64,000 nucleotides of DNA from Escherichia coli O127:H6 str. E2348/69 (lineage in GTDB: Bacteria; Pseudomonadota; Gammaproteobacteria; Enterobacterales; Enterobacteriaceae), in NCBI RefSeq assembly GCF_000026545.1, contig NC_011601.1. The stretch is one strand, 5' to 3'. Within the stretch, counting starts at the first letter, position 1. Each line of letters starts with the position of its first letter. Below, in pieces: positions 5,063 through 5,717 of the stretch. The translations under genes and the position numbers were made by a program. The notes beneath the pieces were generated by a model that was not told the DNA's origin, did not search any database, and saw only the letters and a program-made list of their open reading frames with translations.

Positions 5063-5470
5063 TTATCTTTGCGTCTCTTGTTGTAACAATATCCGCCGTA
5101 AATCCCGCCATTCGGCTTCGTCCATGCTGTCAGCTGCCAGCCATAAATGTTGCCGTTTTCCGCTGTCAGAACGTAAACGCAGCATCATGCCGCTCTTAAT
5201 CATCCACGGCGCTTTGACGATGCTCCACTCCTGCCCTTGCCAACGCAAACGCCCGTCCATCAACAAGCGAATTTCCCCCTGGCGAGCATTAATGCGCCGC
5301 TGGCTGCGAACGCAATCAAACACCACCAGCGAAAGTAACACCATCCATAACGGGGTGTAACTGAGCGGCCAGGGCATGAGTAAAATAACAGCGGCAACCA
5401 GCCCATGAATCAGCAAGGAAAGCCACTGTGCGCGCCAGGAGACGCGCAAATCAGATTGCCACAGGACCAC
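5063..5470 (-). CDS. ygfX: inner-membrane protein YgfX (CptA)
   Basis: 135-aa ORF with two hydrophobic helices; overlaps upstream sdhE by 20 bp. Confidence 0.85.
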
Positions 5471-5717
5471 GTTCCCGGTTCCGTGTCTGGATGAGTCGGA
5501 CCATCATTTCCAGTTCTGCATCGGCCGGTTTACCGTGATTCATCAGCCAGTTAAACAGGTCCGGATCGTCACATTCCAGCAGACGAATAAAGATGCGTTT
5601 TTCGTCATCGCTTAAGCTGTCGTACTCATGTTCGAAAAACGGCATGATTGAAATATCGAGTTCGCGCATACCACGGCGGCATGCCCAATGAATGCGGGCT
5701 TTGTTGTTAATGTCCAT
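5451..5717 (-). CDS. sdhE: FAD assembly factor SdhE (YgfY/CptB)
   Basis: 88-aa ORF with SdhE core motif (RGMRELD). Confidence 0.88.

Follow-up and report, generated by a model that had tools for sequence, protein, structure and literature searches.

Are sdhE (ygfY/cptB) and ygfX (cptA) of Escherichia coli O127:H6 str. E2348/69 a toxin–antitoxin (TA) module, or are they a housekeeping operon whose two genes are linked in translation? We considered this question for the locus as it stands in a 64,000-nucleotide stretch of contig NC_011601.1 (hereafter, the window), for which a sequence-only reading had described a translationally coupled, TA-like gene pair.

The locus and its two products

The two genes are co-oriented on the minus strand, and the open reading frame (ORF) list places their overlap at 5451–5470. 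Read directly on the minus strand, the junction runs ACA CGG AAC CGG GAA C, then the overlap, then T TTG. Because the TGA stop of sdhE lies at 5453–5451 and the GTG of ygfX at 5470–5468, the overlap is exactly 20 nt, and the ygfX reading frame is +1 relative to that of sdhE. The co-orientation and the 20-bp overlap proposed in the sequence-only reading therefore hold, and the comparison with annotated sdhE and ygfX that it had suggested gives RefSeq coordinates identical for both genes. The main features are as follows.

5451–5717, minus strand: sdhE coding sequence, 88 residues, FAD assembly factor; ATG start, TGA stop (ORF list, RefSeq, Pfam, NCBIfam, PDB)
5661–5675, minus strand: RGxxE motif, sdhE codons 15–19, translated as R15-G16-M17-R18-E19
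5721–5726, minus strand: putative Shine-Dalgarno-like element AGGAAG, ~4–9 nt upstream of the sdhE ATG (direct read)
5063–5470, minus strand: ygfX coding sequence, 135 residues, inner-membrane protein; GTG start, TAA stop (ORF list, RefSeq, Pfam)
5451–5470, minus strand: dual-coding overlap GTGGTCCTGTGGCAATCTGA, 20 nt, ygfX codons 1–7 and sdhE codons 83–89
5030–5059, no strand assigned: hairpin from RNA folding, probable shared terminator, in the 39-nt gap that separates ygfX from the convergent fldB

In the RefSeq annotation, prfB, recJ, dsbC, xerD, and fldB lie on one side of the pair and ygfZ, trhA, yqfB, and bglA on the other. A consensus scan for an sdhE promoter found none. The hairpin at 5030–5059 is stable (−23 kcal/mol, z = −4.7; none of 200 shuffles reached this stability) and probably ends both the ygfX and the fldB transcripts; the terminator role for ygfX is one that we infer, since the T-run is present on the fldB side only. 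At 1–929 (minus strand), the start of the window cuts prfB and leaves its 3′ part; the known programmed frameshift of this gene is included in the annotation.

The sdhE–ygfX operon of E. coli K-12 and sdhEygfX of Serratia sp. ATCC 39006 have the same genes, order, strand relation, and 20-nt overlap, as well as the same neighbors (xerD and fldB beyond ygfX, ygfZ and trhA beyond sdhE). We find no difference of substance; what is described here is the E2348/69 allele of an ordinary operon that has already been described, and 1 kb of sequence spanning the locus matches that strain at 100% identity. The sequence-only reading had itself called the pair a conserved feature rather than a novel one, and the RefSeq annotation and conservation across genomes agree with that view. 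Annotations of E. coli genomes all include the locus, on which studies go back to 2012, and it carries little weight as a discovery.

The identity of the upstream product is well defined. SdhE matches the Pfam profile Sdh5 (PF03937) over its full length (E = 5e-26, 90.8 bits against a cut-off of 27) and the NCBIfam equivalog NF008130, "FAD assembly factor SdhE," over residues 1–88 of 88 (198.4 bits against a cut-off of 120). It also matches PDB entries 1x6i (YgfY), 6c12, and 6b58 (both "FAD assembly factor SdhE") with E values of 1e-51 to 1e-59 (phmmer E = 8e-59 for 1x6i), and these solved structures include SdhE alone and SdhE in complex with SdhA/FrdA. A full-length profile match, the RGxxE motif, and solved structures are what it shares with the SdhE/Sdh5/SDHAF2 family. 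To our knowledge, most members of that family, in alpha- and beta-proteobacteria and in mitochondria, lack a YgfX partner. Escherichia SdhE sequences are 100% identical to one another, and in a 25-sequence paired SdhE/YgfX alignment residues R14, R15, G16, M17, and E19 are invariant; in Shewanella, YgfY function was reported to depend on the RGxxE motif.

SdhE had been named a flavinylation factor from the sequence, and the Pfam, NCBIfam, motif, and PDB evidence confirms the identity, with the function itself coming from the literature. There, and in the solved complexes, SdhE, a soluble five-helix protein, is shown to bind the flavoprotein subunits SdhA and FrdA and to promote covalent attachment of FAD. 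Serratia data support a requirement for SdhE in flavinylation of succinate dehydrogenase (SDH) as well as fumarate reductase (FRD), and a genome-wide metabolomics study of E. coli described a viable ygfY mutant in which succinate dehydrogenase activity is severely lowered and growth on succinate is almost absent.

The downstream product, YgfX, matches the Pfam family Cpta_toxin (PF07254) with E = 1e-49 and 168.5 bits (cut-off 27.3), its residues 2–131 aligning to positions 1–132 of the 133-position profile. A scan of the locus for weak Pfam matches returned nothing besides Cpta_toxin, and a search for a relative of YgfX with a solved structure found none. The family is small, since only 135 clusters (50% identity) reached E ≤ 1e-3 when 1.84 billion cluster representatives were searched exhaustively with HMMER.

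Hydropathy analysis of YgfX reveals an uncharged stretch at residues 14–54, interrupted by a conserved MPWPLSYTP turn, with arginines on both flanks (R9 and R13 on one side; R55, R58, R59, and R63 on the other). Because arginines sit at both flanks, a two-helix membrane hairpin with both termini in the cytoplasm fits well, its orientation following from the positive-inside rule. An AlphaFold2 model built from a 44-sequence family alignment (mean pLDDT 95, pTM 0.77) has a strand at residues 2–8, helices at 12–31 and 36–62, six strands between 65 and 112, and a final helix at 118–134. The two-transmembrane (TM) topology that had been expected of this ORF product is thus supported by both hydropathy and the modeled helices.

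5285–5437, minus strand: predicted two-helix TM hairpin, YgfX residues 12–31 and 36–62, with the conserved PWP turn (hydropathy, AlphaFold2)
5069–5278, minus strand: predicted cytoplasmic PH-like β-sandwich and C-terminal helix, YgfX residues 65–134

In the model, the N-terminal strand (residues 2–8) completes the cytoplasmic domain, such that the cytoplasmic part of YgfX is predicted with high confidence to adopt a PH-like fold that uses the protein's own N-terminal strand. Membrane-anchored PH-like domain proteins share this arrangement of a two-TM hairpin followed by a PH-like β-sandwich with a C-terminal helix. YgfX has been reported to bind SdhE in Serratia and to be multimeric.

The ygfX start and the overlap

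A scan of species-representative genomes gave 80 loci from ~25 genera, all within the Enterobacteriaceae. In every one of the 80 species, sdhE lies directly upstream of ygfX in the same orientation, the overlap is 20 nt, and ygfX starts with GTG; both fldB and ygfZ are found within 3 kb of the pair in 79 of them. The profile matches and this recurrence put the pair well outside what chance would give. Eleven distant YgfX representatives (23–50% identity) were traced to their contigs by exact-protein look-up, with Leminorella, Pantoea, Mixta, Tatumella, Candidatus Symbiodolus, and Accumulibacter among the named sources. Nine of the 11 have an Sdh5-family gene directly upstream of ygfX on the same strand and overlapping it, by 20 nt in four cases and, in the remaining five, by 19, 26, 29, 14, and 38 nt, as called. 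At these distant loci, a divergent ygfZ usually lies upstream, and a gene for a flavodoxin downstream. Conservation of the pair across relatives, which the sequence-only reading had asserted, is thus found throughout the 80 species and in most of the distant set. Across the paired alignment (loci L010–L096), YgfX has diverged at about twice the rate of SdhE: between the Erwiniaceae and E. coli, SdhE retains 64–74% identity and YgfX 27–36%, with 72% and 33%, respectively, in Pantoea.

It could be argued that the overlap is an annotation artefact and that ygfX starts at the TTG of codon 8 or at Met32, in which case the two genes would merely abut. In E2348/69, this TTG lies one nucleotide past the sdhE TGA, and the annotated GTG is preceded by only a weak Shine-Dalgarno-like element. 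Codon 8, however, is CTG, TTA, CTC, CTT, or ATA in most other species and is therefore no conserved initiator, whereas the GTG is invariant in all 80, including its T, where a change in sdhE codon 83 would be synonymous. The Pfam profile and the 44-sequence family alignment both begin at YgfX residue 1–2, and residues 2–8 form a confident β-strand of the modeled cytoplasmic domain. Met32 falls inside the first TM helix. We reject both downstream starts and find the artefact explanation hardly credible; on this evidence, ygfX truly starts at the GTG at 5470.

The overlap varies at a single position among the 80 species, a T to A change that produces L3Q in YgfX and leaves a synonymous Pro codon in SdhE. 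Third-position entropy in sdhE, computed over 79 species, averages 1.14 bits for codons 2–77, upstream of the junction, and falls to 0.11 bits for codons 83–88, in the overlap. It is also low, 0.25 bits, for codons 78–82, the 15 nt before the GTG that encode SdhE only; the lowest value for any five consecutive codons elsewhere in sdhE is 0.69 bits.

5471–5486, minus strand: pre-start stretch ACA CGG AAY CGG GAA C, sdhE codons 78–82 and the −1 base; probable ygfX translation-initiation region

Within this stretch, a weak GGA(A) Shine-Dalgarno-like element occupies −12 to −9 relative to the GTG, and two CGG arginine codons persist almost without exception across the 79 species (third-position entropies of 0.00 and 0.10 bits). 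Because the constraint reaches 15 nt into sequence that codes for SdhE only, the simplest reading of the pattern is that sdhE harbors a ribosome-binding region for ygfX, on which selection of its own acts beyond that imposed by dual coding.

This constraint also bears on whether the overlap is a frozen accident, in which dual coding alone fixes the sequence and ygfX is translated independently, with no functional coupling to sdhE. Dual coding alone could account for the near-invariance of 5451–5470, distant relatives have overlaps anywhere between 14 and 38 nt long, and no conserved hairpin masking the start was found. Dual coding does not explain constraint on the 15 nt upstream, however, and some overlap is kept in nine of 11 relatives, down to 23% identity, where a neutral accident should, in some lineages, have given way to a gap. 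Ribosomes on sdhE must, with or without reinitiation, physically cross the ygfX start. We regard the frozen accident as decidedly unlikely. Linked translation of sdhE and ygfX is supported, as far as sequence comparison can indicate, by the overlap together with the constraint just ahead of the start, and co-transcription of the two genes has been demonstrated in Serratia, Shewanella, and Acinetobacter.

How the two genes might be coupled was considered next to the RNA folds of the junction. The minimum-energy fold in E. coli does place a small hairpin over the Shine-Dalgarno-like element and the ygfX GTG. The folds are about as stable as shuffled sequence, z being −1.1 for a 141-nt segment and about −1.4 to +1.4 for 70-nt segments, and the small hairpin is preserved neither in Citrobacter and Salmonella arizonae nor in distant relatives. 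Folding against shuffled sequence and comparison across species thus gave no significant or conserved structure at the ygfX start. With a start-masking hairpin unsupported, coupling by reinitiation or facilitated initiation, by ribosomes that terminate 17 nt downstream of the GTG, appears the likelier mechanism. Reinitiation is well established in bacteria, and our proposal, including occlusion, builds on it.

Linked translation could operate as follows. The weak ygfX start, a GTG with a poor Shine-Dalgarno sequence, sits 20 nt inside the 3′ end of sdhE, and ribosomes finishing sdhE pass this start and terminate 17 nt beyond it. Given the strong purifying selection on the junction, we infer that YgfX synthesis is probably tied to sdhE translation, with YgfX present well below SdhE in amount. 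Occlusion of the ygfX start by elongating sdhE ribosomes could be an added effect. The ygfX gene is predicted to be translated much less than sdhE, because its GTG and poor Shine-Dalgarno sequence compare with an ATG and AGGAAG for sdhE.

A programmed frameshift that would generate an SdhE–YgfX fusion was also considered. Fusions of 166–217 residues do occur in metagenome and Logan data (P0003, P0004, P0006, P0007, P0009, P0012, P0013, and P0021). They are nearly all singleton clusters, and each has a different junction, most of them within or near the overlap. Programmed frameshifting was rejected on these grounds, and the fusions are most simply explained as sporadic indels or assembly errors.

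The toxin–antitoxin label

The label "toxin–antitoxin" for sdhE–ygfX is disputed. In its full form, it would make the pair a genuine type IV TA system (CptA/CptB) in which YgfX blocks polymerization of FtsZ and MreB, SdhE is the physiological antitoxin, and flavinylation is a moonlighting activity. The gene layout is of the right kind, with two co-oriented, overlapping genes and the putative antitoxin first, and Pfam describes PF07254 as "Membrane-bound toxin component of toxin-antitoxin system." TA surveys list CptA/CptB as type IV and find CptA_toxin in 80% or more of the isolates in every E. coli sequence type that they covered. Overexpressed E. coli YgfX was reported to give lemon-shaped cells and to bind FtsZ and MreB, with YgfY counteracting these effects (Masuda 2012, as cited by others). 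CptA of Acinetobacter baumannii is toxic in an E. coli host and is offset by CptB, such that cptBA acts there as toxin and antidote.

Other published observations point the opposite way. The Fineran laboratory saw no TA phenotype in Serratia, yet found a direct interaction between SdhE and YgfX. This interaction conflicts with the type IV assignment itself because it contradicts the definition of that type by non-interacting partners. In Shewanella, YgfY gave no rescue, morphology was unchanged, and no interaction of YgfX with FtsZ, MreB, or YgfY was seen, the last by two-hybrid assay. The viability of the E. coli ygfY mutant, with its defect in SDH, likewise argues against SdhE as a physiological antitoxin. 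When SdhE and YgfX were modeled as an AlphaFold2 fusion through a (GS)15 linker (pTM 0.47), the halves folded independently, SdhE as five helices, and no confident interface was found; being monomeric and built on a shallow paired alignment, for a YgfX reported to be multimeric, the model speaks neither for nor against binding.

The genomic behavior of the locus is also unlike that of mobile or patchy TA loci. The locus is core and syntenic, it is single-copy in 5425 of 5426 complete E. coli genomes, and the patchy, multi-copy, or mobile element–linked pattern typical of TA loci is not seen. No PADLOC model matched sdhE–ygfX. Furthermore, two of the 11 distant relatives are YgfX-family genes without an adjacent sdhE. 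In Candidatus Symbiodolus clandestinus, which has a 1.5-Mb genome, the gene (contig L088, 2501–2944) lies between ygfZ and nadB, followed by rpoE. The product of nadB is an FAD flavoprotein related to SdhA and FrdA. The second orphan belongs to a weak, Accumulibacter-like relative (L090, 1322–1759). That such a "toxin" stands alone in a reduced genome speaks against an antitoxin being an obligatory partner.

The comparison with CbtA/CbeA (YeeV/YeeU), a type IV TA system, is instructive. That system is likewise a two-gene operon with a small soluble "antitoxin" and FtsZ and MreB as reported targets. CbtA/CbeA, however, is multi-copy and found in cryptic prophages, whereas sdhE–ygfX is core and syntenic. 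Unlike the partner in CbtA/CbeA, SdhE has an independent function in an essential pathway. SdhE and YgfX are, moreover, reported to interact directly, and work in Serratia and in Shewanella failed to reproduce their TA phenotype.

Overall, we consider it unlikely that the pair is a genuine type IV TA system. The sequence-only reading had called it TA-like, which the literature on E. coli and A. baumannii supports and which the work in Serratia and Shewanella, together with the absence of TA-type genomic behavior, does not. On this genomic and published evidence, the pair is best filed as the known sdhE–ygfX operon, with "TA-like" kept as a disputed label. The earlier suggestion that it is the only TA-like protein pair in the core part of the window holds with a qualification. 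It is the only annotated TA-like protein–protein pair in the window, but a type I module is present as well, consisting of the ibsC toxin coding sequence and the antisense SibC RNA (20442–20592, plus strand, and 20517–20576, minus strand; Rfam SIB_RNA, 136 bits).

A proposed role for YgfX

The reading that we favor, and think probable, is that sdhE–ygfX is a chromosomal, vertically inherited housekeeping operon in which ygfX is linked to sdhE translation and which is not a classical TA module. The neighboring ygfZ and fldB, going by their annotated functions and by general knowledge, suggest a context of cofactor and respiratory-enzyme biogenesis for the pair. Within this operon, YgfX would most likely hold or modulate SdhE at the membrane. 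Growth inhibition by YgfX would then be an overexpression phenotype that is offset by excess SdhE and not the action of an addiction or defense TA system. The case carries a caution, as a locus labeled "toxin–antitoxin" in databases and in Pfam behaves in comparative genomics like a core operon for respiratory-enzyme assembly.

A more specific version of the housekeeping reading is possible, although we hold it as doubtful. YgfX could be a PH-like membrane receptor that docks SdhE or an SdhE–flavoprotein intermediate, with the overlap fixing a low ratio of YgfX to SdhE and with toxicity an artefact of overexpression. The predicted fold and the observed constraint would allow such docking, and it fits the interaction data from Serratia. 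If it is correct, FAD attachment would be linked to the assembly of SdhA and FrdA onto their membrane anchors. Regardless of this proposal, the analysis sharpens the description of the locus in three respects that would be of use in designing experiments on the TA dispute, namely the GTG start at 5470, an initiation region within sdhE that appears to be under selection, and the predicted PH-like fold of YgfX.

Several observations were made in passing. In the E. coli collection, the locus matches 5426 places, one of them on a plasmid-labeled record, and one complete genome has no copy of the locus. Elsewhere in the window, 24748–26656 contains a partial gene of the methylmalonyl-CoA mutase family, without its C terminus, beside a partial hypothetical gene and a truncated srsR, and this region looks like a deletion scar in this strain. 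The cluster at 33369–36445 encodes a DNA-binding protein with a PPC domain together with the S, T, and two ATPase components of an ECF transporter, and the second ECF ATPase (35768–36445) is an annotated pseudogene with an internal stop. Finally, 43127–43169 (minus strand), between a prohibitin-family gene and tkt, matches the Rfam small RNA ES036 (CssrF) with 50 bits against a gathering score of 37.6.
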